Assembly (NCBI GenBank): GCA_963831295.1
Contig: CAWHPR010000002.1
Location: 319,964 to 383,963 of the forward strand
From: an uncultured Thermoleophilia bacterium
GTDB taxonomy: Bacteria > Actinomycetota > Thermoleophilia > UBA2241
Direction: 5' to 3'
DNA: 64,000 nt
The notes under the pieces are model-generated. The model ran no database searches, was not told the DNA's origin, and saw only the letters and a program-made list of their open reading frames with translations. Below are positions 22,829 through 45,117 of the stretch, one piece after another; the first letter of the stretch is position 1, and each line of letters begins with the position of its first letter. The position numbers were made by a program, and so were the translations under genes.

Positions 22829-23731
22829 TCAGTACACCTCGGGTATGAACGTCTGCGACGCGATGGGTGGGCGCACGTAGCCCTTGTCCGTCGGCCGCGC
22901 GGACAGCGCGAGGTCGTGCGGCAGCACGTCCTCGTAGGGGATCCTGCCCAGCAGGTGGTGGATCATGTTGAGTCGTGCGCGCCGCTTGTCGTCGGCGTTC
23001 ACGACCCACCACGGCGAATCCCTCGTGTCGGTGTAGGCGAACATCTCGTCCTTCGCCTGCGAGTACTCGACCCAGCGATGCCGGCTCTCGAGATCCATCG
23101 GGCTGAGCTTCCACGTCTTCAGGGGGTTCTTCAGCCGCTGCTGGAAGCGCTTCTCCTGCTCCTCGTCGCTGACGCTGAACCAGTACTTCAGCAGGATGAG
23201 TCCGTCGCGGATCAGCATGCGCTCGAACTCCGGGCAGGTCCGGAAGAACTCCCACACCTGGTCCTCGGTCGCGAACCCCATGACACGCTCGACGCCGGCA
23301 CGGTTGTACCAGCTCCGGTCGAAGAGCACGATCTCGCCGGCGGCCGGCAGTTCGGCCACGTACCGCTGGAAGTACCACTCGGTCTTCTCGCGGTCGCTCG
23401 GCGCCGCCAGGGCGGCGATGCGTACCACGCGGGGGTTGAGGTGCTCGGTGATGCGCTTGATCGTGCCACCCTTGCCTGCGGCGTCGCGACCCTCGAAGAC
23501 GACCGCGACGCGACGGCCCTCCTTCTTGACCCACTCCTGCAGCTTCACGAGCTCGATCTGCAGCTTCACGAGCTCACGCTCGTAGGCCTCGCGATCGAGC
23601 TTCCTCCGCGCCGACGCCTTGTCCGTGGTGGGCGGCGTGCCCGCACCGGCCCGTCGAGCGGCCACGATGTCCGCGGCCTCGGCCGGCGGCGGCGCGGTCT
23701 CTCTCTTCTTCTTGTCCTTCTCCTCAGCCAT
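22829..23731 (-). CDS. ppk2: Polyphosphate kinase 2
   Basis: FEGRDAAGKGG, FDRSWYNRAGVERVMG, WKLSPMD, NADDKRRARLN. Start at MAEEKDK. Confidence 0.95.
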   Translation of the reverse strand: MAEEKDKKKRETAPPPAEAADIVAARRAGAGTPPTTDKASARRKLDREAYERELVKLQIELVKLQEWVKKEGRRVAVVFEGRDAAGKGGTIKRITEHLNPRVVRIAALAAPSDREKTEWYFQRYVAELPAAGEIVLFDRSWYNRAGVERVMGFATEDQVWEFFRTCPEFERMLIRDGLILLKYWFSVSDEEQEKRFQQRLKNPLKTWKLSPMDLESRHRWVEYSQAKDEMFAYTDTRDSPWWVVNADDKRRARLNMIHHLLGRIPYEDVLPHDLALSARPTDKGYVRPPIASQTFIPEVY

Positions 23732-23809
23732 CGTCCACCCCCGGTGCCCGATCCTCAGCATCATAGTCGACATCGACACGCGGCGAAGGCCGGCGCCCGT
23801 GGTCGCGCG

Positions 23810-24535
23810 CTACCGGCGCTCGGCCCCGGGGGCTCGGCGGTCATCGTCGCGAGACCGCGACGTGAGCACGGCGAGCAACTCCTCCGGCGTGGCGACGACC
23901 CGCGAGGCGCCGGCCGCGAGCAGGGCCTCCGGCCCGTGCCAGCCCCACCCCACCGCGACCGGTGTGACTCCGGCCTCGCGCGCCTCGCGCATGTCGCCGG
24001 CCGTGTCCCCGACGAAGAAGTAGACCGCCTGCCGCGGGTAGCGTTGCCTCAAGAGCCCGATCTTCTCCGTCTTGCTGTGCCCGCTCTCGACACCGGCGAT
24101 CGCCGTGACGCCCTCGACGTGGTTCTCGGCGAGGAACCGGCGGACAAGAGGTTCGCTGTTGGACGTGACGATCACCACATCGCCCAGCTCGCCGAGCCGC
24201 GCCAGCACCTCCGGCATCCCCACGAACGGCTTCATTCGGGACAGATCGCGCTCGAGTACGCGCCCCGCCGTCTTCAGCGCCCGCGCGACGGCCTGCTCGC
24301 CGGCGCCGATGGCGCGGAAGCTCTCGTACACGTTGCCGGCGAAGAGCGCGACAACGTCGTCGACGGTCCGCACGGGGGCGATCCCATGCTCCGCACACGC
24401 GGCGATCAGGGCGAAGGCGAAGACCTCGAGTGAGTCGACCACGACACCGTCGAAGTCGAACATCACGACCTCGCGATACCGCTCCCCCTTCGCGGCGAGC
24501 GGCGGGCGAGGCGCCGGCGGCGGGAACGATGTCAT
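23810..24535 (-). CDS. HAD-superfamily phosphatase (Gph-like)
   Basis: MFDFDGVVVDS (motif I), VIVTSN, FVGDTAGDM, VGWGWH. Confidence 0.88.
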   Translation of the reverse strand: MTSFPPPAPRPPLAAKGERYREVVMFDFDGVVVDSLEVFAFALIAACAEHGIAPVRTVDDVVALFAGNVYESFRAIGAGEQAVARALKTAGRVLERDLSRMKPFVGMPEVLARLGELGDVVIVTSNSEPLVRRFLAENHVEGVTAIAGVESGHSKTEKIGLLRQRYPRQAVYFFVGDTAGDMREAREAGVTPVAVGWGWHGPEALLAAGASRVVATPEELLAVLTSRSRDDDRRAPGAERR

Positions 24536-24593: not shown

Positions 24594-26015
24594 TCAGGAG
24601 GCCGACGTCTTGCCCGAGACCAGACCGGTCTTCTTCTTGAACTGCTCGACGCAGTTGATCTCGATGTCGAGCAGTTCGGCGATGCGCACCTTCGCGGCTA
24701 TGCCCTTCGCGATGCCCGGGACGCCCGTGATCGTGCCGATGTCAAGCTCTTCCCTGACACCTCGCATCATGGTCGGATCGGACAGGTCGAGCGCTGTCAC
24801 GTGAAGCTTGTCGGCCACGTACCTCTTGGCGTCGTCGATCCTCATCTTCTTGTTGAGCTGCATCCTCGCCACTAGATCTCCAGCGGCCCGGATGCCACCC
24901 ATCGATGAGGCCAGCAGATGCGCCAGGTGCATGCCGGCAGGGTCACCCGTACCCACCTACAACCCGTCGGCCTTGCCGATCTCGATCATGGCGGCGCTGC
25001 AGCGCGTGACGACGTCGACGGCGGGCGTCTCGAACATCGGCACGCCCCCGACGCCCATGCCGACGTTCGGATGCACCGGGATCTTGGCGATCTGGGTGCA
25101 GGCCTTCACGAAGGTCAGCGCGCGGGCGAGGTTCCACGGGACCGTCTTCCTGGTGTTGGTGTTGCAGACGGGGCCGAAGATCGCACAGCCCGCCTGTTCA
25201 CACAGATCGAGCTGCTGATGTGGCCAGAGGCCGGCGAGCCGGACGCCGTTGTACTCGAGCTCGCCGTGGAAGCCGAGGACCATCTCGGACGACATGCCGA
25301 TCTCGACCGGCAGGCCCGTCTCCTTGGCGACGTGCTCGGTGGTCTTGAGGACGGCCAGGAACTCGGCGTCGCCGGTCGAGGCGACCGTGTCGTAGTCGAT
25401 GCCGTCGGCGCCCATCGCGACCATGCAGTCGCTCATCTCGACGCAGTCCTCGAGGCAAGCCTCGAGGGCCTCCTCCTGCGTGCGGCGCGCCTCGTCGATC
25501 TTGCCCAGGGGCAGCAGGTCCGAGGGGTTCTCGAAGGAGCCGTCGGGCCGGTAGTAGAGGCCGAGGTTCGGCATGAAGCCGTAGAGCAGCGGGAAGATCG
25601 TCACCTCCTGGAGGATCTCCATGTGCAGCATCTCGAGCGCCTTGAGGAAGCGCTGCGGCTTCACCGAGTAGTCGTTGTGCGAGACCTCCATCGAGTCGAA
25701 GCCGAGCATCGACTCGAAGAGGCGCACGCCCACCTCGCGGTTGACCGGCGCGACGACCCCGCTCGACATGCGCGAGGAGTTGAGCGCGTTGACGCAGCCG
25801 TCCTTGGTCATCACGACCTCGTTGCCGCGCTGCACGCCCCAGAGTCGTGTCGGCGCCGAGAACATGTCGACGAGGAAGTCGATCTCGTTCTCGGTCAGCG
25901 TCGGGATCTTGGCCTTGACCGCGGCCGCCTCGGACCCCGTCACGAACTCGCTTCTCAGCTCGTCCGGGGTGAGCTCGACGTTCGAGGCGTCGCCCATCCT
26001 GGTCAGTATCTTCAT
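24594..26015 (-). CDS. mtbB: Dimethylamine:corrinoid methyltransferase with in-frame TAG (predicted pyrrolysine, codon 353), 473 aa by readthrough
   Basis: MKILTRMGD...[13 protein letters not shown]...EIGKADGL-[TAG 24957-24959][13 protein letters not shown]...[14 protein letters not shown]...REELDIG...AKGIAAK. From memory this matches the Methanosarcina MtbB pattern DGI-O-IGVGDP. Confidence 0.92.
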
Positions 26016-26074: not shown

Positions 26075-28129
26075 CTAGCGGTTCAGCGCCGCCCTGGCAC
26101 GCTCGTAGACGTTGTCGGCGGTGAAGCCGAAACGCTCGAAGAGGATGCCGGCCGGGGCCGAGGCGCCGTAGTGATCGAGGCCGATGACGTCGCCCTCGTC
26201 GCCGACCCAGCGCTCCCAGCCGAACGTGACGCCCGCTTCGACGGCCAGTCGCCGGCGGCAGGCGCGCGGCAGAACGCTCTCGTGGTAGACCGCGTCCTGG
26301 CGCCCGAAGAGCTGCCACGAGGCCATGTTGACGACGCGCGAACGCACGCCCTCGGCCGCGAGGCGCTCGTGCGCCTCGAGCACGGGCGCGACCTCGCTGC
26401 CGCTCCCGATGAGGATCAGCTCGGGTACGGCATCGGCGACGGCGTCGGCGAGCACGTAGGCGCCGCGGGCGACACCGTCCGCCGGCCCGTACTTGCCTCG
26501 ATCGATGGTAGGCAGGTTCTGGCGCGTCAACATGAGCCCGACCGGGCCGTCGGCGTGCGTCACGGCGATCTTCCACGCCTCGACGGTCTCGTTGGCGTCG
26601 GCCGGACGCAGCTCGACCCAGTTCGGCGTGGCCCGCAGGATGGCGAGGTGCTCGACCGGCTGGTGGGTGGGCCCGTCCTCGCCGACACCGATGCTGTCGT
26701 GCGTCAGCACGTAGGTGACGGGCAGCCCCATCAGCGCCGCGAGGCGCATCGCCGGCCGCATGTAGTCGACGAAGACGAAGAAGGTGGCCACGTACGGGCG
26801 TATGCCGCCGTGCAGCGCGAGCCCGTTGCCGATCGAGGCCATGGCGTGCTCGCGGACCCCGAAGTGGAAGTTGCGCCCGGCGGGCGTGGCCGCCTGCTGG
26901 GCCGGCGCGTCCTTGATGACGGTGTTGTTCGAGGGCGCGAGGTCGGCCGAGCCGCCCATGAGGGTGGGCAGATGTGGCGCGAGCGCGTTGATCGTCTTGC
27001 CCGACGCCGCCCGCGTCGCCACGGCGCCGTCGGCGGGGTCGAAGACCGGCAGGTCGGCATCCCAGCCGTCTGGGAGCTTGCCGCTCCAGGCGGCGTCCCA
27101 GCTCGCGGAGCGGCCGGCATCGGCCGCGCTCCATGCCGCGTGACGCTCGCGCCACGCGGCGTGCACGGCCGCACCGCGCTCGGCGGCGGCCGCGTAGAAC
27201 GCCTTCACGTCGTCGGGCACGAGGAAGTCGGGCTCGAGCGGCCAGCCCAGGTTCTGCTTGGTCAGCACGACCTCGTCGGGGCCGAGCGGAGCGCCGTGAG
27301 CGCCGGCCGAGTCCTGCTTGTGAGGCGAGCCGAAGCCGATATGCGTGCGCACCGCGACGAACGACGGCTTGCCGGTCTCGGCCTTCGCAGCGGTGATGGC
27401 GGCGTCGATCGCCTCGACGTCGTTGCCGTCGGCGACCTTCTGCACGTGCCAGCCGTACGCCGCGAAGCGCGCGCAGACGTCCTCGGTGAAGGCGAGGTCG
27501 GTGGGACCGTCGATCGTGATGTGGTTGTCGTCGTAGAGGACGACGAGCTTGCCCAGCTTCTGGTGACCGGCGAACGATGCGGCCTCGCCGCTGATGCCCT
27601 CCATCATGTCGCCGTCGCCGGCGAGGACGTAGGTGAAGTGGTCCATCACGCCGGGGCCGTCGCCGTTGAACGCTGCGCCGAGGAAGCGCTCGGCGACGGC
27701 CATGCCGACGGCGTTGGCGAATCCCTGGCCCAGCGGACCGGTCGTGGTCTCGACGCCGGCGGTGTGCCCGTACTCGGGATGACCCGGCGTCTTGCTGCCC
27801 CACTGGCGGAAGGCCTTGAGGTCGTCGATCGAGAGGTCGTAGCCGGTGAGGTGGAGCAGGGAGTAGAGGAGCATGCTGGCATGGCCTGCCGAGAGCACGA
27901 AGCGGTCGCGGTCAGGCCACGCCGGGCCGGAAGGGTCGAAGCGCAGGTGGCGCGTGAACAAGGTGTGCGCCACAGCTGCGGCGCCCATGGGCATGCCGGG
28001 GTGACCGGACTTGGCCTTCTGCACGCCGTCCACCGCGAGAAAGCGGATGGTGTCGATGCAACGATCCTCGAGGGCTTTGGTGCCTGCGTGGCGCTCTTCG
28101 AAGGTCCCGGCGCTCGCGTCTGGGCTCAC
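26075..28129 (-). CDS. tkt: Transketolase
   Basis: [27 protein letters not shown] motif GDGDMMEG...[19 protein letters not shown]. Confidence 0.97.
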
Positions 28130-28230
28130 GTGCGTCCTTTCATTCGCGGTCTGCGGCGGCGGCCGCCGCCCTCCCCATTCGCGGCGAGAGGGCGGCGGAC
28201 CTGCGAGGTCTGATCAGTGCCGGGCGCGCC

Positions 28231-29355
28231 TCACACGGCCGACGCCGGACGCTCGTCGGCGCCGTGAGCCTCGCCGAAGTAGGCGCGCACGAAGCGCACG
28301 AAGCGCCCGCACTCCTCGGGAGTGCCCGGGGTGACGCGGAAGTAGCCCTCCCTGCCGTTGATCGGCTTGATCGTCTTGAGGAAGATCTTCTCCATGTCCA
28401 TGGCCGCCCGGACGATCTCGGCGCTGGTCTTGCCGGTGACGCCGGCGTCGATGAGCATGTAGTTGCCGTGAGCCGGGAAGGGCTTGAGGCCGACGGCCTC
28501 GAGCTCCTTGGCGAAGACGTCCATCCAGTCGTTGTTGTACTCGACCTTCTTCGTGACCTCGCCACTGTCGAGGATCGCCTCGGCGGCGGCGATCGCCATG
28601 AGGTTCAGGTTCCACGGCAGGTACATGAGGTTGAAGGCCTCGACGAGCTCGGGAGAACCGACGACGTACCCGAAGCGGACCCCGGCGAGGCCGAAGGCCT
28701 TCGAGAAGGTGTGCGAGAGGAACACGTGCGGGTACTTCTTGACGAAGTCGACCTTGGCCGCGACCTGCGGGTGGTAGTCGAGGTACGCCTCGTCGATGCA
28801 GAGCGGGATGCCGAGCTCGCAGAACCTGGTGAGATCGGCGTCGTCGATGAAGATCCCGGTCGGGTTGTTGGGGTTGATGATGAGGATGACCTTGGTCTTG
28901 TCGTTGACCGCCGCCAGCATCCCCTCGACGTCGTACTGCAGGTCCTCTTCGCGCAGCGGGATCTGCACGGTCTTGGCGCCGCAGAGACCGGCGCGCGAGG
29001 GGAACATCTCGAACGTCGGGTTGGAGCAGAGGAACTCGTCGCCGGGCTGCAGGAAGATGCGCATCATCGCGTCGATGGTCTCCGACGACCCATTCGCCAG
29101 AGCGATGTTCTCGGCGGCCACGCCGTGCAGCGCGCCGAGCTTGGCGCGCAGCCGGTAGGCACGGTCGGGGTAGCGGTTGCCCCGCTTCGCCATGTCGACG
29201 ATCGCCTCGACGACCTGGTCCGACGGCGGCACAGGGTTCTCGTTGAGCATCATACGACCGCACTCGGGCTGCGCCCACGCCTTGTCGAGGATGGACGTGT
29301 TGTACTCAGGGGCGGTGAGGAGCCACGGCACGAACCTGTCTTTGATGTCGGTCAT
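28231..29355 (-). CDS. Class I/II PLP aminotransferase (HisC-like, substrate uncertain)
   Basis: LNENP, NRYP, NGSSE, NPNNPTG, DEAY, PLP-lysine motif TFSKAFGLAGVRFGY. Start at MTDIKD. Confidence 0.85.
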   Translation of the reverse strand: MTDIKDRFVPWLLTAPEYNTSILDKAWAQPECGRMMLNENPVPPSDQVVEAIVDMAKRGNRYPDRAYRLRAKLGALHGVAAENIALANGSSETIDAMMRIFLQPGDEFLCSNPTFEMFPSRAGLCGAKTVQIPLREEDLQYDVEGMLAAVNDKTKVILIINPNNPTGIFIDDADLTRFCELGIPLCIDEAYLDYHPQVAAKVDFVKKYPHVFLSHTFSKAFGLAGVRFGYVVGSPELVEAFNLMYLPWNLNLMAIAAAEAILDSGEVTKKVEYNNDWMDVFAKELEAVGLKPFPAHGNYMLIDAGVTGKTSAEIVRAAMDMEKIFLKTIKPINGREGYFRVTPGTPEECGRFVRFVRAYFGEAHGADERPASAV

Positions 29356-29380
29356 TCTCGCTGTCCTTTCGTCGCGGCGA

Positions 29381-30580
29381 TCAGGCGTCTGCGAGGCAGC
29401 TGCCCGCGAACGCGACCATCTCGTTGGTGGCCTTGGAGAAGGCATCCGCCGTCTTCACGAGCGCCGGATGGGTGTTGTATTCGTCGCGCGTGTAGCCGTC
29501 CTCTTCGTAGGCGCGCTCGAAGTACGGGATCCGCATGAGCTTGTCCATGACTTCCTTGGGCGGATCGACGGAGATGCGGTCCGCCTGGAAGGTGATGTCG
29601 TCGGCCGTCGGGAAGTTGATGAGCTCGTCGATGAGGCTCGGAGGGCAGGTGACCACGATGTCGGCTCCAGCCTTCTCCTCGAGGTGCCAGATCTTCGTCT
29701 TGCCGTCGACGACTGGCCCGAGGCGCAGGGAGCAGGAGAGCATCTTGCTCTGATAGCCGCCGTCCTTGACGAGACGGTACGCCTTCTTGAAGATGGCCAG
29801 CTCGGCCATGCGGACGTCGCCCTCGGTCACCTCGATGCCCTTCTCCTTGCCGGCCTCACGCAGACCACCGAGGTCGCCGTAGCGGGCCTCCATGTGCGTG
29901 ATCACCGAGCGCCACTTCGAGAGGTCGACGCCATCGGCCTTGGCCTTCTCGAGACCGCGCTTCACGGTCTTCGCGCAGTCCATGAGCTGCGGCAGGATGA
30001 AGGTGAGGGTGTTGTTGGTGGCGATCCCCTTGGCGGTGAGAGCCTCGATGACGTCGTAGCCCTCCTTCGTGCCGGGCACCTTGATCATCACGTTGGGGTT
30101 GATGGTGTGGATCTCGAGCGCCTGCGCGAGCATGGCGTCCTTGTCGAAGCAGCTCCGCGGATCGACCTGGCCGGAGAGGAAGCCTTCCTTGTGGCCGGAT
30201 GCCTCGAACAGGGGGAGGAACAGGTCGGAGCCCTGCTTGACGACCTGCTTGTACATCTGCCAGAAGAGGCCCTCGGTGTCGAGCCCGCCGGCCTCCTTGA
30301 GGATCTTCTCCGCCTCAGCCTTCCAGCGTGGCGGATCGTCCTGGATGGCCTGCAGCGACAGCGGGGGGTTGGTCGTGACGCCGCGGAAGAGCTGGCTCAT
30401 CGGATCGTCGGCGTTGTACATCCGCGCGAACTGGGCCTTGAGGACCTCGCGGTCGCCGGGGTCGGCTTTGGCGAGCATCTTCTTGTACCAGTTGTCGAGG
30501 ATGACCGGCGACGAGTCCCACCAGATCTCCATGCCGGGGCTGACGGCGACCAGGTCCTCCAACATGTTGCGTTCGTGCAT
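29381..30580 (-). CDS. tal: Transaldolase-family protein
   Basis: GVTTNP, SGQVDP, Schiff-base VMIKVPGT, NNTLTF. Confidence 0.85.
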   Translation of the reverse strand: MHERNMLEDLVAVSPGMEIWWDSSPVILDNWYKKMLAKADPGDREVLKAQFARMYNADDPMSQLFRGVTTNPPLSLQAIQDDPPRWKAEAEKILKEAGGLDTEGLFWQMYKQVVKQGSDLFLPLFEASGHKEGFLSGQVDPRSCFDKDAMLAQALEIHTINPNVMIKVPGTKEGYDVIEALTAKGIATNNTLTFILPQLMDCAKTVKRGLEKAKADGVDLSKWRSVITHMEARYGDLGGLREAGKEKGIEVTEGDVRMAELAIFKKAYRLVKDGGYQSKMLSCSLRLGPVVDGKTKIWHLEEKAGADIVVTCPPSLIDELINFPTADDITFQADRISVDPPKEVMDKLMRIPYFERAYEEDGYTRDEYNTHPALVKTADAFSKATNEMVAFAGSCLADA

Positions 30581-30636
30581 CTCTCCCCCTTAGGGATCGT
30601 TTCGACGGATTCAGGTCTGCGAACGGTCGGCCTCGC

Positions 30637-31452
30637 CTACGCCCTCGGCACCTCCCCGCGCCGTGCGGCCACCCGGTCTCCCGGGACCCGCTCACACACG
30701 ATGCAGTGGACGCCGAGCGACGTCAGCTCGTCGCGGATGGCTTCGTCGACGCCGTCATCGACGATCGCGGTGTCGACCCGGTCGAGCCCGCAGATGACGA
30801 CATCGGCCACCACGCCGATCTTGCTACGGTCGGCGAGCACGACGACCTCGCCGCGTGTCTGGTCGAGCATGGCGCGCTCCATGCTGGCGATACCGACCGT
30901 CGGGGTCGTCAGCCCTTCCTCGAGATCGAGGCCGTCGACACCCAGCAGCATGAGGCTGGCGTGGAACCGGCCGATCTGCTCGACTCCAAGGGGGCCGTCG
31001 ACCGAGTTCGAACGCGGCCGGTAGTGGCCGCCGACGAGGATCACCTCGAGGCTCAGGCCCTGCGATTCGGCCAGCGCCCCCGCGTTGTGCGTGATGACGC
31101 GCGCCTCGAGCGAGGGATCGACATGGCGCAAGACCTGCGCCGCCGTCGTACCGGCGCTCAGAAACACGGTCTCGCCGGGCCGGATGAGCGCCGCCGCAGT
31201 CTGGGCGATGTGGCGCTTCTGCTCGGCGTTGGCCGTCACGTTGTCGAGGTACAGAGCCTCCTCGACCATGCGCCGCCTGAGGACGGCGCCACCGTGCGTG
31301 CGCACGAGCACACCCTCGGCCTCGAGGCGCTCGAGGTCGCGGCGGATCGTCATCTCGGAGACGCGAAGATCGTCGCTCAGCGAGGAGACGCGCACGGCGC
31401 GCCGCTCCTGCAGCAGCTCCCTGATGCGCCTGCGACGCTGGGCCGGGATCAT
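30637..31452 (-). CDS. DeoR/GlpR-family transcriptional regulator (copy 1)
   Basis: HTH VSEMTIRRDLERLE...RTHGGA, GTT, LVGG, VLADRSKIG. Confidence 0.95.
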   Translation of the reverse strand: MIPAQRRRRIRELLQERRAVRVSSLSDDLRVSEMTIRRDLERLEAEGVLVRTHGGAVLRRRMVEEALYLDNVTANAEQKRHIAQTAAALIRPGETVFLSAGTTAAQVLRHVDPSLEARVITHNAGALAESQGLSLEVILVGGHYRPRSNSVDGPLGVEQIGRFHASLMLLGVDGLDLEEGLTTPTVGIASMERAMLDQTRGEVVVLADRSKIGVVADVVICGLDRVDTAIVDDGVDEAIRDELTSLGVHCIVCERVPGDRVAARRGEVPRA

Positions 31453-32729: not shown

Positions 32730-34469
32730 TTACTCGACCGGGATCTCCTTGGCCACGGCCTCGAGCTCCATGCCCTGGTTCTTGCGGACGATCCAGGCGA
32801 CGACCCACACGACGATGGCCGCCACGTAGAGACCGCCCATGAAGAGGGCTGACTCCCACAGGTTGATGTAGTAGACCCCGTCGGGATCCCAGACGAACAT
32901 GTAGATGTTGAAGATCATGAAGGCGCAGTAGACGGCCGCCACGATCGCCATCCACGGGATGCCGGCGATCTCTCCCTTCGGCAGCGAGGAGCTCTCCCAG
33001 ATGCTGCGGGCGCGCCACTTCATGACCATGAAGGCGAGCCCGCTGCCGAGGAACATGATGATGATGCCGAACGTCGCATCGTAGGTGAAGAGCTTGACGA
33101 TCGTGACCCCGCGCTCCTCCACGATGGGCGTGTAGGCGTAGAGCGCCGCCACGATGGTCGACGGGATCGTCATCAGCACGAGGGCGATGACCGGGACGCC
33201 GCCGCTCGTCACCCTCGCAGCGGCTTCAGGCAGGATCCTGTCGAAGGCCGACGCGAAGATCATACGCGTCGAGGAGAGGAAGAGCGTCCCGAACCACCCG
33301 AAGAGCAGCAGCGAGATGGCGGCGATCAGGATGACCTGGAAGGCCGCGTTGGGCACGATCCAGGAGATCATCGCCGTGGGCGAGACGTAGTCACCGCCGA
33401 TCGGCGAGACTCCCCACCAGAAGGCCGCCATCGTGCCCATGAAGGCCTGGTAGCCGACCTTCCACGTCATGAGCCCGAGGAAGGCGAGCGCAATGAACGT
33501 GGGCACGAGGAGACCGCCGAGCATCTGGTAGATGTTCTTGCGGAAGTCCTTGGCGCCCCGCACCTCGCCGTAGAGCGTCGCCCCCCAGTTCGGCCACGCC
33601 ATCCAGAACAGCATGAGGGGGATGAGGGCCCAGGTGGCCCAGCTGAGACCACCCGAGAAGGTCGACTCCGGCATTTCCGTGCCCTCGCCGACGGCCTCGA
33701 TGGCCTCGAAGGCGCCGGCGTGGGACTGACCCTCAGCAACGACCATGTTGCCGTCGTCATCGTAGACGAACACGCCGTTCGCGTCCTGCTCGTAGACCGT
33801 GAGGTCGAGCAGCCCCGCCTCGCCGCCGTAGTACTTCTCGGCCGCGTCGTTGAACCGGTCCTTGAAGGTGTCGCCCGAGGTGACGAGCAGTAGGACGCCG
33901 CAGACGATCACGCCGGCGAGGCCGATCCACATGGCCCACTTCTGGAACCTCGCGTACGCCTTCATGCCTACCGCGACGAGAGTGGAGGCGATGGCGATGA
34001 CCACGAGGGACGCGATGAAGATGCCCGTCCGGCTCCCCAGCCAGTCGGCGGCGCTGTGCCAGCCGATGATCCGGAGGATCGGCTTGATGGTGGTCTGAAC
34101 GCCCATGTCGGCGTAGATCGGGGTCCAGAGCCAGAGGATGAACCACCAGCCCACGGCGGCGATCACGAAGCCCACCGAGCTGTGGAAGATGCGTGTCATC
34201 CATACGTAGTCGCCGCCGGCTCTCGGCATCGCCGAGATGAGGCCGGCGTAGACGATGATCTCGAGGACGATGAAGATGGCGGTGAGGACGATGGCCCAGA
34301 AGAGACTGCCTCCCGGGATGAAGGTCGCGTACGCGAACGACCAGATGGCGAGGAACAGGTTGACCGAGAAGAACGAGTAGCGGAACCCGTCCCCGCCGGA
34401 CCACCCCTTGACCAGGCCGCTGGCCTTGCGCACGAAGAGCGTCTGCTCCGGTGCGGCGTTTGTTGCCAT
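32730..34469 (-). CDS. APC-family amino acid/amine permease (copy 1)
   Basis: LFVRKASGLV, MPRAGGDYVW, about 12-14 hydrophobic helices, RMIFASAFDRILP. Confidence 0.88.
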   Translation of the reverse strand: MATNAAPEQTLFVRKASGLVKGWSGGDGFRYSFFSVNLFLAIWSFAYATFIPGGSLFWAIVLTAIFIVLEIIVYAGLISAMPRAGGDYVWMTRIFHSSVGFVIAAVGWWFILWLWTPIYADMGVQTTIKPILRIIGWHSAADWLGSRTGIFIASLVVIAIASTLVAVGMKAYARFQKWAMWIGLAGVIVCGVLLLVTSGDTFKDRFNDAAEKYYGGEAGLLDLTVYEQDANGVFVYDDDGNMVVAEGQSHAGAFEAIEAVGEGTEMPESTFSGGLSWATWALIPLMLFWMAWPNWGATLYGEVRGAKDFRKNIYQMLGGLLVPTFIALAFLGLMTWKVGYQAFMGTMAAFWWGVSPIGGDYVSPTAMISWIVPNAAFQVILIAAISLLLFGWFGTLFLSSTRMIFASAFDRILPEAAARVTSGGVPVIALVLMTIPSTIVAALYAYTPIVEERGVTIVKLFTYDATFGIIIMFLGSGLAFMVMKWRARSIWESSSLPKGEIAGIPWMAIVAAVYCAFMIFNIYMFVWDPDGVYYINLWESALFMGGLYVAAIVVWVVAWIVRKNQGMELEAVAKEIPVE

Positions 34470-34542
34470 AAGTTGACCCTCCTGTCGAATAGTGACTGCC
34501 GGCGCCATGGCGCCGCCCCCCGGGTGTCGCGCGTCGGCGCGT

Positions 34543-35490
34543 TCACCCCATGGTCAAACGGTACCGCTTGAGCTTGCTCTTGCCGTCGAGCTCCACGATC
34601 ACTCCCGACAGGGTCCCTTCAACGTAGGAGCTCCCGGGATTGATCGCGAGCGTGCGGCCGAGACGCTCGGCGGCACGGCTCTCGTGGATGTGACCGTGCA
34701 ACGAGAGGATGGGCTGGACCTCCTTGATCACCTCCTTGACGGCCGTGGAGCCGACGTGGGCCGTGTCCTGGCCCTGCACCGTCAGCGTCTCCCAGTCGAT
34801 CTTGGGCGCGATGTCGAGGTTGGTGTCGAACGGCGGCGCGTGCAGGCCGAGCACCAGGCGCTCGGGGCCGACCGTCGCCTGCGCGATGATGCCGAGGAGG
34901 CGCTCCTTGAGCGCCGGCTCGTCCTCTTCGCGCGGCGTGTCCCACGGCGTCAGGTTGGTCCAGCCGCTCGAGGCGAGCTGGTAGCCCTCGGGCAGGTCGA
35001 GCACGTTGCCCTCCCCGACCTGGATGTGCCGGGACTCAGCAAGGATGCCGTCGATGTCGTGGCGGTCGTCGTTGCCCGGGCAGACGATGCACTGCAGCCC
35101 GGTGCCCGCGAGGCGCTCGTCGGCCCAGGCGACCCAGTTCGCGACCGTCGTGCGCATCTGCTCGTGGAAGAGCTCATCGAGCTCGTCCGGGTCGCTCGTG
35201 TACGCGTCGCGCTCGGCGGCGCTCATGACGACCGGGTAGTAGCCGTGGTCTCGGATCGCCCTCTGGTTCTTGGCGAGGGCCTCGTCGCCCTCGAGCTCGT
35301 GACGGACGTCCTGCATGTGGAAGACGTATTTGCCCGATCCTTGGTCGATGATCGGCACCACGGCCTTGCCGGTCATGTCGCCGCCGAGGATGAGGACATC
35401 GGCTTCGTAGTGCTTGCCCGAGTTGATGAACTTGCGCCAGCACGCCTCGGAGCCGTGTACGTCGGTGGCGAAGAAGATCCGCGTCGTCAC
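34543..35490 (-). CDS. Icc-related calcineurin-like metallophosphoesterase (copy 1)
   Basis: FATDVHGS, GGDMTGK, PGNDD, HAPP, LHGHIHES, INPGS. Confidence 0.85.
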   Translation of the reverse strand: MTTRIFFATDVHGSEACWRKFINSGKHYEADVLILGGDMTGKAVVPIIDQGSGKYVFHMQDVRHELEGDEALAKNQRAIRDHGYYPVVMSAAERDAYTSDPDELDELFHEQMRTTVANWVAWADERLAGTGLQCIVCPGNDDRHDIDGILAESRHIQVGEGNVLDLPEGYQLASSGWTNLTPWDTPREEDEPALKERLLGIIAQATVGPERLVLGLHAPPFDTNLDIAPKIDWETLTVQGQDTAHVGSTAVKEVIKEVQPILSLHGHIHESRAAERLGRTLAINPGSSYVEGTLSGVIVELDGKSKLKRYRLTMG

Positions 35491-39351: not shown

Positions 39352-40263
39352 CTACACCGTCGCGAGCCACGTAGGGTACTCCGGGTCGCCGGCGTTGCCC
39401 CGCAGCCGGTCGAGACGAGCGTTGCCGTACTCGCGGTAGTCGAAGTCGAGCTTGGACACCTGCTCCTGGATGAACGCCCAGATGCTCCACCACAGGTCGG
39501 CGACGATCTTGTGCAGGAGCATCCGGTGGAACCGGTGCTCCTGCATCTCGCCGCAGTACCGGGTGGCGATGAGGCGCTCCTCGTCGCGCGAGAGCGGGTG
39601 CTCCACACAGAAGTCGCCGAGGTCGAAGTACGGGTCGTTCATCCCGCCGTACTCCCAGTCGATGAGCCACATCCGGCCGGCGTCGTCGAGGATGAAGTTC
39701 TCGGACAGCAGGTCGTTGTGACAGGCGACAGGGCGCGGCATGTCGCGCTCCATCGCCTGTTCGATCTCGGCGCCGATGGCCATGATCCGCGGCCAGTCAG
39801 ACGGGAACCAGGCGTTCGCCTCGCCGGCCATCCGCAGGTAGTCGCGAATCATCGGGAACACGCTCGTGTCGTTGGTGAAGGCGGCCGTGTCGTGGTACGT
39901 CCTGATGACGTCCACCACCTTCTCGAGCCGCTCGGGATGACCGGCCAGGGTGTCGGGATGCATCGTCTCGCCGCGGATGAAGGGCACGACCGTGCACTTC
40001 TCGGGCTCGAGCACGTGCAGCAGCGGCGGCGCCACGCCCGCGGCCGCGGTCGACCGGTGATTGCCGAGCTCCCGCTCGCGGTCGATGAACGCGTCCGTGC
40101 CGGCGCCGGGGATGCGCAGCACGTACTTCCCGCCCCGCCCCCCGTCGACGGTGATCATGTAGTTGTGGTTGGTGATGCCCCCGCCGATCTCCTCGCACTC
40201 GACGTGCTTGCCGCGCCAGTCGTCGATGCGGCCGATGGCGGCCTCGGGTGTCAGCCGCGTCAC
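39352..40263 (-). CDS. Choline/ethanolamine kinase-like phosphotransferase
   Basis: GGGITNHNY, YVLRIPG, Brenner motif CHNDLLSEN, LIDWEYGG, YFDLG. Start overlaps the mtmB-like stop (GTGA). Confidence 0.88.
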   Translation of the reverse strand: MTRLTPEAAIGRIDDWRGKHVECEEIGGGITNHNYMITVDGGRGGKYVLRIPGAGTDAFIDRERELGNHRSTAAAGVAPPLLHVLEPEKCTVVPFIRGETMHPDTLAGHPERLEKVVDVIRTYHDTAAFTNDTSVFPMIRDYLRMAGEANAWFPSDWPRIMAIGAEIEQAMERDMPRPVACHNDLLSENFILDDAGRMWLIDWEYGGMNDPYFDLGDFCVEHPLSRDEERLIATRYCGEMQEHRFHRMLLHKIVADLWWSIWAFIQEQVSKLDFDYREYGNARLDRLRGNAGDPEYPTWLATV

Positions 40264-41642
40264 GAGGCCGGCACCTCGAGGCCCATGCCGGCCAGCTCGC
40301 TGCGGACCTCCGCGATCGTGCGCAGGTACTCCTCGTTCACGATCCGCTTCGTCTTCATGTCGTACACCTGCTGGAACGTGAGGCCCTTGTCCGGGTCCTT
40401 CAGCTTGTCGCCGAACAGCGGGAACAGTCTCTGGGCCAGAGGCTCCGCCTCGGCGCGGGTGAGCTTCGCGGTCGCGAGACCGATCTCCGCGTGGAACTTG
40501 TGGTCGTCGGGCACGAGCGAGTCGGGCTGCACGGCCATGGACGGGTGACCGGAGAAGACATTGCCCCCGGAGGTCACGACGGCCAGCATGTAGCAGGCCA
40601 TCTCGTAGTGGTACTGCTTCGTGCCCGAGCCGCCGCCCAGGTACGGCAGGTTCACCATGGGGTAGCCCATGTTGCGACCGATCGCGGCGTTGGACATCGC
40701 GATCGCCCAGATGAGGGGCTTCGTCGAGCTCAGGTGCAGTTTGCTGTGCAACGGCGCGTTGTAGTGGTAGCTGCCGCGGAAGATGAGGTTGCCCATGATC
40801 ATGTAGGCGGTCGCCTGCACGGCGATGCCCTCCGCCCCGCCGGCGTAGCCGCCGAAGAGGGGCGTGGACGTGGAGCCGATGTTGGCGCTGAGGCTGTTGT
40901 AGAAGGCCACCTTCTGCAGCGCCTCGTAGCCGACCACCATCTCGGAGAGAAAGTCGATCAGGAAGCCGTCGCTCGGACGCAGGCCGAAGTCGGGATGACT
41001 GGCGGCGAACATCGAGGCCGGCTGCGAGGCGGCTGAGATGCCGTTGATGATCGGCAGGCCGGCACGCCCCGAACGACGGATGCCCTCGCGCGCCAGCCGC
41101 ACCGTCTTGCAGGCAGCAAGGACCTCCTGCGGCGAGCGCACGCGCGCGTCCTTGCCGCGCAGATGCAGGATGGACGGCACGCTCACGGAGTCGACGATGC
41201 TGTACGAGGCCATCATCTCGACGGTGTCGAGGTAGACCTGCTCATCGGTCGTGTAGATGCCGCCGCCGACGTGCACCCACGGACGGTCGTCCGTGGTGTC
41301 GGGGCGGCGGCCGTACATCGCCTTGCGCTCGCGGCCCTCGCCGAAGACCGCGCTGGTCGGACACTGACCGCAGGCAGTGAGGACCTCGTCGTGGGTGAAC
41401 TCCATCACACGGTTGGTCTCGGGACAGTAGGCCCCAGCCTCGGCGATCAGGTCGACGGCGGCCCGGAAGACGCGGTCAGTGAGGTCGTCGTCAGTATTGA
41501 TGATGGTCTGCTTGTCCCACTTGACGCCGTGGCGCGCCAGCAGCTCGCTGAGCTTCGGCACGTAGCGCTTCATGTAGTAGTCGGTCTCGGAGATGAGCGG
41601 GCCGGACTCGGCGCGCTCGAACACCTCTGTCAAGTCGATCAT
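40260..41642 (-). CDS. mtmB: MtmB-family (monomethylamine) corrinoid methyltransferase, pyrrolysine-free
   Basis: ERAESGP, YCPETNRVMEF, RSGRAGLP, STPLFGGYAGGAEG, GSGT. No in-frame TAG. Confidence 0.82.
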   Translation of the reverse strand: MIDLTEVFERAESGPLISETDYYMKRYVPKLSELLARHGVKWDKQTIINTDDDLTDRVFRAAVDLIAEAGAYCPETNRVMEFTHDEVLTACGQCPTSAVFGEGRERKAMYGRRPDTTDDRPWVHVGGGIYTTDEQVYLDTVEMMASYSIVDSVSVPSILHLRGKDARVRSPQEVLAACKTVRLAREGIRRSGRAGLPIINGISAASQPASMFAASHPDFGLRPSDGFLIDFLSEMVVGYEALQKVAFYNSLSANIGSTSTPLFGGYAGGAEGIAVQATAYMIMGNLIFRGSYHYNAPLHSKLHLSSTKPLIWAIAMSNAAIGRNMGYPMVNLPYLGGGSGTKQYHYEMACYMLAVVTSGGNVFSGHPSMAVQPDSLVPDDHKFHAEIGLATAKLTRAEAEPLAQRLFPLFGDKLKDPDKGLTFQQVYDMKTKRIVNEEYLRTIAEVRSELAGMGLEVPAS

Positions 41643-41677
41643 GTCGTGCTCCCTGAAAGTCGGGGTCGCCTGGACGG

Positions 41678-42325
41678 TCAAGACACCAGCTGTGCGGACA
41701 CGCTCACGGCCTCGTACGCCGAGCCGGCCCAGCCGTCGGCGCCGATGGAGTCGGCCCACTCCTTCGTCGTGGCGCCTCCGCCGACGAGCACCTTGTACTT
41801 GTCGCGCGTGCCCTGGTCGCGCAGCGCTTCGATCACGTCCCGCTGTCCGACCAGCGTCGTCGTGAGGAGCGCGGACATCGCGATGATGTCGGCGTCGACC
41901 TCCTTGGCCTTGTCGACGAACTGGAAGAGGTCGACATCGATGCCGAGGTCCCAGACCTCGAACCCCGAGGTCTCGTAGAGGAGCCTGAGGATGTTCTTCC
42001 CGATCGAGTGAAGGTCGCCCTTGACGGTGCCGAGGACGACCTTGCCCTTCTTCGGGCCCGCGCCGCCGCTCTCCTTGATCTTCGGCTCGAGCACGCTCAT
42101 GGCGGCCTGGAAGGCGAGCGCCGCCTGCATCAGCTCGGGCAGGAAGATCTCCTCGCTCTCGAACTGCTCGCCGATGACATTGAGGCCCGGCAGGAGCCCC
42201 TCGTCGATGATCGCTTTGGCGTCGACGCCTGCGGCGAGGGCCTCGTCGACGGCGCCGAGCACGCCGCCTTCGTCCTGGTCGATCACCGCCTGCTTGAGCT
42301 GCCCGAAGATCTCTGCGTCCGTCAT
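41678..42325 (-). CDS. Methyltransferase cognate corrinoid protein (MtbC/MtmC-type B12-binding)
   Basis: IFLPELM, LGTVKGDLHSIGK (DxHxxG), SALLTTT, VGGG. Confidence 0.95.
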   Translation of the reverse strand: MTDAEIFGQLKQAVIDQDEGGVLGAVDEALAAGVDAKAIIDEGLLPGLNVIGEQFESEEIFLPELMQAALAFQAAMSVLEPKIKESGGAGPKKGKVVLGTVKGDLHSIGKNILRLLYETSGFEVWDLGIDVDLFQFVDKAKEVDADIIAMSALLTTTLVGQRDVIEALRDQGTRDKYKVLVGGGATTKEWADSIGADGWAGSAYEAVSVSAQLVS

Positions 42326-42403
42326 TGGATGCTCCCTTGATCCGTGTGATCCCGCTTCACGACCGCACCCGGTCGTGTCTTTCACCGCCGACCCTGTCCG
42401 CCG

Positions 42404-43858
42404 CTACGCTTCGGCGACCTCCAGGGGCGCAGCGTCGCCGGCGACGAGCCCGGGGAACCGGTCGCGGATGCGCCGGTCGAGCTCAACGTCCCAGACTGCC
42501 GGGTTCGACTGCGAGAGGAGACGCCGCGCCTCAGTGAGGGCGCGCTCGTGGATGTCGGGGCGCCCGGCGTCCTCCCATTGGGCGCGCATATCGCGGGCGG
42601 CCAGCCTCGGCAACACGGCCGTCGTCTTCATGCGCGCCCTCGTGTGCCCGCGGCTCATGTAGCCGCCGCCCGGCCCGACCGCGACGATCTCGTCGATCGC
42701 CAGGTTCTCCTCGCTGAACTCGAGCCCGCGCCACGCGCGCTTGTCCATCAGCGCGATCTCGTTGTCGATCACGCACTTCGCGAAGTCGAACGCCATGAGC
42801 GAGCTCAGGAGCCCGCCCATGTTGAGAAGGGTCGCCCCCGCCGACACGGCCAGCAGCGTGTTCATGCCGGTCTCGAAGCCCGACTGCGCGTCGTTCGCGT
42901 GGGCGTTCGTGAGGCCGACGTAGCCGCCCGACGGCACGCCGTAGAAGCGGGCCAGCTGCGCCTGGGCCGCGATGAGGATGCCCGTCTCGACGGCTCCTGG
43001 CGCGTAGGCCCCCGTCCGCATGTCGGCGACGGTCGGCAGACTCGCGTAGATCACGGGCGTGCCCTCGCGGACCATCTGCTGGAAGGCGGTGATCGCGAGA
43101 TACTCGGCGTTGCCGACGACCAGGCAGCCCATCAGCGTCATGGGCGCGGTGAGGCCCGCGTTCGGCACGACCGTGGTGTAGACCGGCAGCCCCTGCCCGG
43201 TGAGCCACATGACGGCCTCCGTCGATTCGACGTCCATCGTCAACGGGCTCACCATCGGACAGTAGTGGTGAGTGATCAACGGCCGCTCCCGGTAGGCGTC
43301 CGGGCCACCGGCGATGAGCTCACCCAGCTCGACGACCTGGCGCAGGTCGTCCATGCTCGGCGTGTTGCTGCGCACGGGCTTCAAACAGTTCTTGAGCGCC
43401 GGGTAGAACCGGCTCAGGCTGAGTTGTCCTTCCGGCGCGTCGTCGGCGAGCGTCGAGATACTGAAGACGTCGAAACCGGGGAGCTCGTTGATCATGTAGG
43501 CGATGGCGGCGATGTCGCCGGAGGTGGCGCGCCGCTCGACCCCCGTCACGGGATCGACGACGTTGGGTGCCGAGGAGCCGGTCACCACGACGGGGCCGTC
43601 GTCGGGGATCGTGCGATCGAAGCGCGGGTCGCGCCCGCGGAAGGTGAAGCTCGCCGGCGCCATCGCGCGATAACGTTCGACCACGTCGGCCGGCAGCCGC
43701 ACGAGCCCGGTCTCCCGCTCGACACGGCAGCCGTGCCTGGCGAAGATCTCGCGCGCCTCAGTGCTGTGCACGAGGATGCCGGCCCTTTCGAGGACCTCGA
43801 GCGACGCCTCGTGCGTCCGGCCCACCTGGGCCTTGGTGAGCAGCTCCGCGAATCTCAT
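42404..43858 (-). CDS. mttB: MttB-family quaternary-amine/methylamine corrinoid methyltransferase, pyrrolysine-free
   Basis: HEASLEVLERAGI, CPMVSPL, AGLTAPMTLMG, GLTNAH, GGLLSSLMAFDFAK, GPGGGY. No in-frame TAG. Confidence 0.9.
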   Translation of the reverse strand: MRFAELLTKAQVGRTHEASLEVLERAGILVHSTEAREIFARHGCRVERETGLVRLPADVVERYRAMAPASFTFRGRDPRFDRTIPDDGPVVVTGSSAPNVVDPVTGVERRATSGDIAAIAYMINELPGFDVFSISTLADDAPEGQLSLSRFYPALKNCLKPVRSNTPSMDDLRQVVELGELIAGGPDAYRERPLITHHYCPMVSPLTMDVESTEAVMWLTGQGLPVYTTVVPNAGLTAPMTLMGCLVVGNAEYLAITAFQQMVREGTPVIYASLPTVADMRTGAYAPGAVETGILIAAQAQLARFYGVPSGGYVGLTNAHANDAQSGFETGMNTLLAVSAGATLLNMGGLLSSLMAFDFAKCVIDNEIALMDKRAWRGLEFSEENLAIDEIVAVGPGGGYMSRGHTRARMKTTAVLPRLAARDMRAQWEDAGRPDIHERALTEARRLLSQSNPAVWDVELDRRIRDRFPGLVAGDAAPLEVAEA

Positions 43859-43862
43859 TGCG

Positions 43863-45071
43863 TCACGCTCCCTCTCCCCCGCGACCTCGAGCGGCGCGGG
43901 TGACGGCTGTGGCGATGGCGGCAAGCTCGGCGAAGTGGTCCTCGATGAACTCCACGAAGGCCACGTTGTGCTCGAGGAAGAAGAGAAACTCGTCGTCGTT
44001 CGGCGTGCGTTCCTTGTAGTAGGCGACGATGTCCCAGTTCACGACGTAGAGGGCCGCGATGGCGACCATGCGCGGCAGCGCCGCCAGTTCGTCCTCGCCC
44101 ATCGGCCCGGGATCGGCGAAGCGCGTCGTCTCGTCCTGGTAGGCGTCGAGGAAGAGCTCGACCTTGTCGAGGCGCATCTCGCCGTCGTCGCGGCCCTCCC
44201 ACGAGCTGCAGAAGTACACGAGGCCGATGGCAACGTCGAAGAGACGGTAGTCGAGCTTGGCCCAGTCGAAGTCGAAGAGGCCCACGGCCTTCTCGTCGCG
44301 CCACTTGAGGTTGCCGGGATGGTAGTCGCAGAAGACCGGGCAGCGAGGCAGCCCCTCGAGCGCGGGAACGAGGGCCAGACCGCGCTCGATCGCCTCCAGG
44401 ATGCCGGGCAGCTTGGCAAGGAAGCACGCGTCGTACCTGGTACCGGTCGTCTGCGCCGCCAGCCCGCGGAAGGTGTCGGGCAGCGTCGCCAGGAAGTCCA
44501 TGATGGGCGGCTGCTCGCGCACGAGGTCGCCGGGGTCGAAGTCGTGCGCCGCCTGGTGGAACCGGGCGAGGACGCGGGCGCCGTCCGCGAAGGCGGCGTC
44601 GCTGCAGCGGTTCTTGACCCAGCTGTACGTGTCCTCGCCGTCGAGCATCTCGTACACGGCGAAGTAGCGGATGACCCGCTCCCCGTCGCGCAGCTCCTCG
44701 CGGGTCACGACGGTGTCGCCGTGCCGGGTGCCGAGGACTTGCGCCGCGAGATCGAAGCCCTTGCCCCTGATGTGGCGCACGAGCGCGTGCTCGTAGCGGA
44801 TCTCGCGCTCGACGGTCCCGTACTTGTACTTGCGCGCGAAGTAGCGCCGCTCGCCGGCGTCTCCGCGCGCACAGACCGCGAAGCTCAGGTTCTCGGTCCC
44901 GCCGAGGATCTGTTCGACGCGGTCGACCTCGCCGAGGTCGTAGTCGCTCGTCACCACCTCGGTGAGCTGGGCGCTGAGGAACTCGACCCGCAGCGCCTCA
45001 TGGAGGGTGGCGACGTCGGTCGCCAATCGCTGGGCCGTGTCGAAGAGCCGGTTGGCCTGCTCTAGGTCCAC
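43863..45071 (-). CDS. APH/type II homoserine kinase-like phosphotransferase
   Basis: LGGTENLSF, LARFH, CDYHPGNL, GLFDFDW, LFDVA. The start could also be ATG 45092. Confidence 0.82.
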   Translation of the reverse strand: MDLEQANRLFDTAQRLATDVATLHEALRVEFLSAQLTEVVTSDYDLGEVDRVEQILGGTENLSFAVCARGDAGERRYFARKYKYGTVEREIRYEHALVRHIRGKGFDLAAQVLGTRHGDTVVTREELRDGERVIRYFAVYEMLDGEDTYSWVKNRCSDAAFADGARVLARFHQAAHDFDPGDLVREQPPIMDFLATLPDTFRGLAAQTTGTRYDACFLAKLPGILEAIERGLALVPALEGLPRCPVFCDYHPGNLKWRDEKAVGLFDFDWAKLDYRLFDVAIGLVYFCSSWEGRDDGEMRLDKVELFLDAYQDETTRFADPGPMGEDELAALPRMVAIAALYVVNWDIVAYYKERTPNDDEFLFFLEHNVAFVEFIEDHFAELAAIATAVTRAARGRGGEGA

Positions 45072-45117
45072 GTCGCTCTCTCTCCCTCGCACCCCCGCAG
45101 CACCGCGCTTCGTTCGT

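Follow-up and report, generated by a model that had tools for sequence, protein, structure and literature searches.

The closest described counterparts of the gene reported here are MtbB1-3 of Methanosarcina barkeri, full-length members of the dimethylamine methyltransferase family (PF09505, TIGR02368) that carry a single in-frame UAG followed by a PYLIS_2 region (mtbB pyrrolysine insertion sequence). Bacterial pyrrolysine (Pyl) systems of the Desulfitobacterium hafniense/Acetohalobium type are split, comprising pylT, pylSc and pylBCD with a separate pylSn. Pyl-encoding mtbB and mttB were found to be expressed by Actinobacteriota metagenome-assembled genomes (MAGs) at Stordalen Mire (Ellenbogen et al. 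2023, PMC10805028), and pyrrolysyl-tRNA synthetase (PylRS) has been noted in 'two Actinobacteria' (Guo et al. 2022, PMC9630628). Here, we analyze an mtbB-type gene with an in-frame TAG that lies in a 64,000-nt stretch of DNA (hereafter the window) from an uncultured Thermoleophilia bacterium. The source genome is a MAG of four contigs and 1.73 Mb, with 70% G+C and an estimated completeness of 57%. We conclude from sequence comparisons, with a probability of roughly 85%, that the organism decodes the UAG of this gene as Pyl and that mtbB encodes a Pyl-dependent MtbB-family methylamine:corrinoid methyltransferase.

The mtbB frame is the reverse complement of positions 24594-26015. It opens with an ATG at 26013-26015, with GGAGG a few bases upstream, and closes with a TGA at 24594-24596. 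The sole internal stop is a TAG at 24957-24959 (codon 353), flanked by the residues EIGKADGL before and VGTGDPAGM after, and 120 codons lie between this TAG and the gene end. The read-through product matched PF09505 (Dimeth_PyL) end to end with 612 bits (residues 5-462 of 473 against model positions 5-463 of 463) and the NCBIfam equivalog TIGR02368 with 511.5 bits against a cut-off of 369. Positions 24594-26015 hold a genuine mtbB-type gene. We found no solved structure for any MtbB relative. An AlphaFold model of the product, built with 28 read-through homologues (predicted local distance difference test 79.5, predicted template modelling score 0.85), is TIM-barrel-like and places residue 353 within a beta strand (351-355), with weak matches to generic TIM barrels (template modelling scores of 0.3-0.6); the predicted fold contributes little to the identification.

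The UAG of mtbB falls on the UAG (positions 1-3) of Rfam family RF02509, and three Firmicutes MtbB genes from Eubacteriaceae and Anaerovoracaceae MAGs, at 45% identity, have TAG in the same alignment column. The Pyl column was thus placed via the Rfam model and the Firmicutes homologues rather than by direct alignment to an archaeal MtbB; it agrees in model coordinates with residue 356 of M. barkeri MtbB1, which we take to be the Pyl position. A homologue scan of species-representative genomes returned 78 loci, 75 of them from uncultured Thermoleophilia or Actinomycetota MAGs and 67-99% identical. All 75 actinobacterial loci retain TAG at the Pyl column, and so do three additional paralogues located on them, making 78 copies; together with the three Firmicutes genes, this conservation is far beyond chance. 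Among the best 120 protein-database homologues of MtbB none is full-length, most having 346-356 aa, because gene callers stop at the TAG.

The preliminary description of this stretch, made from the letters alone, had proposed a high-GC, actinobacterial-looking host and a frame that halts at the TAG after EIGKADGL and resumes in phase for 120 codons. The 70% G+C Thermoleophilia MAG and the minus-strand translation bear out both points. It had further assigned the TAG to the MtbB Pyl column, where the RF02509 UAG and the Firmicutes TAG do coincide with it, and had anticipated that standard annotation would break the gene, as the public calls ending at the TAG confirm. Its contention that the TAG is unlike the indel errors elsewhere also held, as all 78 Thermoleophilia copies found retain the codon.

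We compared substitution patterns on the two sides of the TAG. Against nine relatives, the ratio of non-synonymous to synonymous substitution rates (dN/dS) of mtbB is 0.05-0.21 upstream of the TAG and 0.07-0.27 downstream, and the post-TAG segment differs from that of a 99%-identical relative by four non-synonymous and nine synonymous changes. The alignment of the 28 MtbB read-through products has a mean column identity of 78%. As judged from these ratios, purifying selection acts on the 120 codons after the TAG much as it does on the preceding ones, which indicates that the downstream codons are translated in this lineage.

Both halves of a split bacterial pyrrolysyl-tRNA synthetase are encoded in the genome. 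The pylSc and pylSn genes are ~8 kb apart, in one 10-kb stretch with a corrinoid protein gene at C4:115652-116533, a radical SAM gene and cell-wall genes. Taken with a TAG that falls in the Pyl column and with the coding selection downstream of it, their presence supports the earlier proposal that this organism uses the 22nd amino acid. In the mechanism that we propose, the ribosome would read UAG codon 353 as Pyl via a tRNA-Pyl(CUA) charged by PylSn and PylSc, and read-through would yield a 473-residue TIM-barrel enzyme. The Pyl side chain would bind the amine substrate, and one methyl would be transferred to corrinoid-protein Co(I) and from there into one-carbon metabolism. From the family assignment we infer dimethylamine as the substrate; the methyl acceptor is likewise putative.

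The relatives of this organism provide the rest of the machinery. Of the 81 genomes of its GTDB family, 73 carry pylD, and the same 73 and no others carry pylT, which scores 95-106 bits with our own covariance model. Both genes are carried by 11 of the 12 other genomes of the genus, and pylT is present in six of six genomes whose MtbB is 96-99% identical. One same-genus genome (G024) encodes pylB, pylC and pylD with 444, 321 and 183 bits, respectively, and its pylT was also confirmed. In seven relatives ARAGORN placed a 73-nt tRNA-Pyl(CUA) next to pylD. The relatives' tRNA combines a D loop of 5 nt and a long anticodon stem with a variable region that is very short; pairing in its cloverleaf is complete (100%), and six of the pairs covary. 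In a sample of the class Thermoleophilia, pylD was found in 54 of 301 genomes (51 from the organism's own family and three from one other family), and in a sample of the phylum Actinomycetota, covering 249 genera, in one of 401 genomes. Judged by gene content, Pyl decoding is close to a family trait in this one Thermoleophilia family and rare elsewhere in the phylum.

At the RNA level, the region from the UAG onward matches PYLIS_2 with 67.4 bits (gathering score 36, E-value 4.7e-16), much of which reflects conserved coding sequence. Support for the second PYLIS_2 hairpin comes from covariation. Across 72 distinct sequences, 95.3% of cells in its stem (columns 73-80 with 85-92) are paired, pair 75/90 occurring as CG (43), AU (14), UA (9) and UG (4), and pair 78/87 as CG (26), GC (25), UG (15) and UA (5). 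Both of these pairs lie at third-codon positions, that is, helix 2 covaries at synonymous sites. The first hairpin is weakly supported in this lineage, with 64.5% of cells paired. The element, already represented in Rfam, resembles PYLIS_2 in its above-gathering match and in helix 2 and differs in the badly paired helix 1 of the Thermoleophilia lineage; a recoding role here is putative.

Besides the mtbB of the window, the genome has four Pyl-type genes (Table 1). Two are mtbB paralogues whose TAG falls at the Pyl column; the other two are mttB genes interrupted in frame by a TAG near residue 337. The mttB read-through products matched TIGR02369 with 696 and 678 bits against a cut-off of 525, and the C4 mttB copy adjoins an mtbB paralogue and a corrinoid protein gene. 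On contigs C2, C3 and C4, the 1.7 Mb assembly contains in addition ~20 MttB-superfamily tblastn matches and six corrinoid protein genes. By its gene content, the organism is a putative demethylating methylotroph, with a metabolism unusually oriented toward methyl groups for an actinobacterium.

A genome-wide scan for in-frame TAG codons between coding-like flanks gave 35 candidates; it missed the window mtbB itself and so is no census, and most of the candidates look like neighboring genes that share a frame. One of the candidates, a radical SAM open reading frame (ORF) beside pylSc (C4:114003-115658, minus strand), with 314 codons, a TAG and then 236 coding-like codons in phase, was considered as a Pyl gene and rejected, as the DNA similarity of relatives ends at the TAG (C4:114716), which is probably an ordinary stop.

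Table 1. Features of the mtbB locus and of the Pyl-related genes elsewhere in the assembly. Positions are those of the window, or of contigs C3 and C4 where so prefixed. Counts refer to the 36 mtbB orthologue loci with full flanks.
Feature	Position	Strand	Evidence and remarks
mtbB, dimethylamine:corrinoid methyltransferase family	24594..26015	minus	473 codons including in-frame TAG; translation, PF09505, TIGR02368, dN/dS
UAG codon 353, predicted pyrrolysine	24957..24959	minus	RF02509 alignment; column shared by Thermoleophilia and Firmicutes copies
PYLIS_2 match (Rfam RF02509, mtbB pyrrolysine insertion sequence)	24860..24959	minus	begins at UAG; 67.4 bits
Second PYLIS_2 helix	24868..24887	minus	8-bp hairpin with 4-nt loop, 72-91 nt past UAG, over AAGDLVA codons
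Polyphosphate kinase 2 (PPK2)	22829..23779	minus	PF03976, 361 bits; downstream neighbor in 23/36 loci
HAD-family hydrolase	23810..24535	minus	Pfam HAD_2; directly downstream of mtbB, 23/36 loci
Transketolase, aminotransferase, transaldolase and DeoR regulator block	26075..31452	minus	Pfam
Amino-acid-type permease	32730-34508	minus	Pfam; in 32/36 loci
Metallophosphoesterase-like gene	34543-35490	minus	Pfam; in 31/36 loci
Choline/ethanolamine kinase family	39352..40263	minus	PF01633, 103.7 bits; <=6 kb from mtbB in 28/36 loci
MtmB-family methyltransferase without pyrrolysine	40260..41759	minus	PF05369, 222.7 bits; fully open frame
Corrinoid (B12-binding) protein, candidate methyl acceptor	41678..42385	minus	PF02310 and PF02607
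MttB-superfamily methyltransferase without pyrrolysine	42404..43924	minus	PF06253, 275 bits; TIGR02369, 360 bits, below equivalog cut-off of 525
APH-family kinase	43863..45092	minus	PF01636, 89.7 bits; directly upstream of MttB-like gene
pylSn	C4:109842-110099		TIGR03912, 122 bits, cut-off 51; frame open
pylSc	C4:118058-118783		TIGR02367, 303 bits, cut-off 178; frame open
mtbB paralogue	C4:224014-225365	minus	TAG C4:224341-224343 at Pyl column
mtbB paralogue	C3:373092-374486	minus	TAG C3:373458-373460 at Pyl column
Pyl-type mttB	C4:226380-227882	plus	in-frame TAG at about residue 337
Pyl-type mttB	C3:535706-537115	minus	in-frame TAG at about residue 337

In this window, mtbB is separated by the transketolase/DeoR block from the rest of a methyltransferase cluster that spans 32.7-45.9 kb, all on the mtbB strand. 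The view that mtbB is a lone gene among pentose-phosphate genes was overturned by the gene order of relatives. The usual order in the orthologue group is MttB-like (no Pyl), corrinoid protein, MtmB-like (no Pyl), choline/ethanolamine kinase, metallophosphoesterase-like gene, permease, mtbB (Pyl), HAD and PPK2, with the permease and phosphoesterase directly upstream of mtbB in most relatives. The choline/ethanolamine kinase and/or the MtmB-like gene lie within 6 kb of mtbB in 31 of the 36 loci; the other five belong to the closest relatives of this genome, which have the DeoR-transaldolase-aminotransferase-transketolase block inserted as it is here. This block stands upstream of mtbB in loci L018-L022 and L063 and is absent there in most other orthologue loci. 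The MtmB-like protein aligns an Ile opposite the Pyl of M. barkeri MtmB (1L2Q). Among the six corrinoid protein genes, one is in the co-oriented cluster and one is beside pylSc; none adjoins this mtbB. The corrinoid protein of the cluster scored below cut-off with the MtgC, MtbC and pyl_corrinoid models (193-222 bits, cut-offs 215-350).

This conserved neighborhood raises the first alternative, which concerns function and leaves decoding as we propose it: the enzyme may be Pyl-dependent and act not on free dimethylamine but on a secondary or tertiary amine derived from choline, for example N-methylethanolamine, N,N-dimethylethanolamine or the phosphate of either. The nearby kinase and MtmB-like genes point in this direction, as do the corrinoid protein, permease, phosphoesterase and HAD hydrolase genes that are the usual neighbors of mtbB, and the classical arrangement of mtbB, corrinoid protein and Pyl-mttB belongs to a separate paralogue clade (67-70% identical). 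Published precedents exist for related chemistry. In the MthK-MthB-MthC-MthA system of Eubacterium limosum, a dedicated kinase makes phosphocholine, which an MttB-family enzyme then demethylates (PMC12155760), and MtqB of Methanococcoides methylutens, a non-Pyl MtmB homologue, demethylates choline and tetramethylammonium, the first function described for such homologues (a 2026 paper, PMC13044021). The evidence for the choline-type substrate is drawn from gene neighborhood, whereas the protein clears the dimethylamine methyltransferase equivalog cut-off of NCBIfam by a wide margin, and we consider this substrate possible if on the unlikely side.

Taken further, the same neighborhood suggests a speculative scheme, which we regard as doubtful, in which soil and wetland Thermoleophilia would possess a complete corrinoid-dependent pathway for choline demethylation, and this mtbB orthologue group would supply its Pyl-dependent step. 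The kinases would make phosphocholine, and the non-Pyl MttB-like and MtmB-like enzymes would take the first methyl from the quaternary amine. Pyl-MtbB would then take a methyl from the product, an ethanolamine-type amine (secondary or tertiary) or the phosphate of that amine, and the HAD and metallophosphoesterase proteins would deal with the phosphate. Were this so, MtbB would be the first case of a pyrrolysine enzyme acting on anything other than tri-, di- or monomethylamine. The conserved neighborhood thus offers a testable hypothesis on a new substrate class for a pyrrolysine enzyme. The features that the window shares with the MthK-MthB-MthC-MthA and MtqB systems are its kinase, non-Pyl MttB-like, corrinoid, non-Pyl MtmB homologue and choline/ethanolamine kinase genes, here all co-oriented with mtbB. 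The order kinase, MttB-like and corrinoid at 41678-45092 recalls MthK-MthB-MthC, a resemblance in gene order only. Both published systems operate without a Pyl enzyme and take a single methyl from choline, and they are likened to the present cluster by gene types alone.

The second alternative denies decoding itself: mtbB would be a relic in a lineage that has lost pylT and pylBCD, where the UAG ends translation and a decaying gene yields a truncated product of 352 residues. Several observations weigh against Pyl decoding and fit such a relic. In the 1.73 Mb, 57%-complete assembly, pylT was absent by ARAGORN, the Rfam tRNA model, BLAST with the relatives' pylT and covariance model R1, and a hand-written cloverleaf pattern gave no match; pylB, pylC and pylD were also absent, with only weak matches far under the cut-offs. 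Three genomes of the same genus carry pylT after pylSn and a GerMN-type gene, a place that another gene occupies here. Three family members that are 93-98% complete (G010, G019 and G047) truly lack both pylD and pylT. Both further mtbB paralogues, two of the three mtbB copies, are frameshifted, one once and the other twice. A further point against Pyl decoding is that TAG terminates ~20% of long coding-like ORFs (TGA 953, TAG 245, TAA 21); UAG would therefore be ambiguous here and not fully reassigned, and read-through must be tolerated or regulated. In other Pyl-using bacteria, too, UAG is ambiguous rather than fully reassigned.

Further candidates for pylT were rejected. At lowered ARAGORN thresholds (95-80%) thousands of false tRNAs appeared, with CUA matches only by chance, and an extra Rfam tRNA match at C3:58427-58500 (37.9 bits) was ruled out as pylT by its GAU anticodon and acceptor-stem mismatches. 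This tRNA-like sequence, on the minus strand and missed by ARAGORN, lies 4.5 kb from a normal tRNA-Ile(GAU) and may be a decayed duplicate. Separately, ARAGORN called a 96-nt tRNA-Lys(UUU) at 49283-49378 of the window (plus strand), where the genome-wide search gave no Rfam tRNA match; the call is probably a false positive inside coding sequence.

The same genome also holds evidence that runs counter to a relic. The preliminary description had proposed searching the genome for pylT, pylS and pylBCD, with the gene to be taken as a truncated relic if a complete genome lacked pylT or pylS. The search recovered pylSc and pylSn, both intact; it did not recover pylT or pylBCD, in an assembly that at 57% is not the complete genome on which that conclusion was to depend. 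In the two nearest relatives (G326 and G329), pylBCD and pylT are sited away from the pylS cluster, and their 20-kb pylBCD/pylT neighborhood has no match here save for a ~2.4-kb AOR-like stretch at ~81% identity, which suggests an assembly gap rather than a targeted deletion. On this evidence synteny favors a gap without proving one. The missing genes are thus probably unassembled and within the absent 43% of the genome. In three of the five Pyl-type genes the frame is fully open both before and after the TAG, the paralogue frameshifts may be long-read indel errors or pseudogene decay, and the four non-synonymous and nine synonymous post-TAG changes against the 99%-identical relative also speak against a relic. 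We therefore regard a relic as improbable and favor Pyl decoding of the mtbB UAG.

The last alternative, that the TAG is really a sense codon altered by sequencing or assembly error or that the contig was mis-binned from another organism, has a negligible likelihood despite apparent indel errors elsewhere in the assembly, given that 78 independent copies, drawn from many assemblies and projects, have the same TAG, that the close homologues all come from Thermoleophilia or Actinomycetota MAGs, and that G+C is uniform across the four contigs (69.6-70.9%); as far as these comparisons can tell, sequencing error as the source of the TAG is excluded for practical purposes.

Because annotation truncates mtbB at the TAG, methylamine use by these soil and wetland actinobacteria is under-counted. 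The analysis also yields a tRNA-Pyl model for this Thermoleophilia group.

Compared with M. barkeri MtbB1-3, with which it shares the family, the UAG column and the downstream PYLIS_2 region, the present gene differs in its bacterial, high-GC, actinobacterial host and in not standing beside a dedicated mtbC, and its methyl acceptor pathway is likely to involve tetrahydrofolate rather than coenzyme M. The system resembles the Desulfitobacterium hafniense/Acetohalobium type in its separate pylSn and pylSc and, in relatives, in pylB-pylC-pylD with tRNA-Pyl(CUA). It differs in that its genes are dispersed, with pylBCD and pylT elsewhere in the nearest relatives and not in this assembly. The Actinobacteria of the two earlier reports (PMC10805028, PMC9630628) belong to the same phylum and carry the same gene types, and one of the homologous mtbB loci comes from a Stordalen MAG (isolate bog_752). 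The novelty implied in the preliminary description was thus overstated, as Pyl in Actinobacteria had been published. Pyl-type mtbB in this group is a well-supported new example rather than a discovery, and the general picture is unchanged. The earlier reports devote about a sentence apiece to the trait; the present analysis maps it to one Thermoleophilia family and a few genomes of a second.

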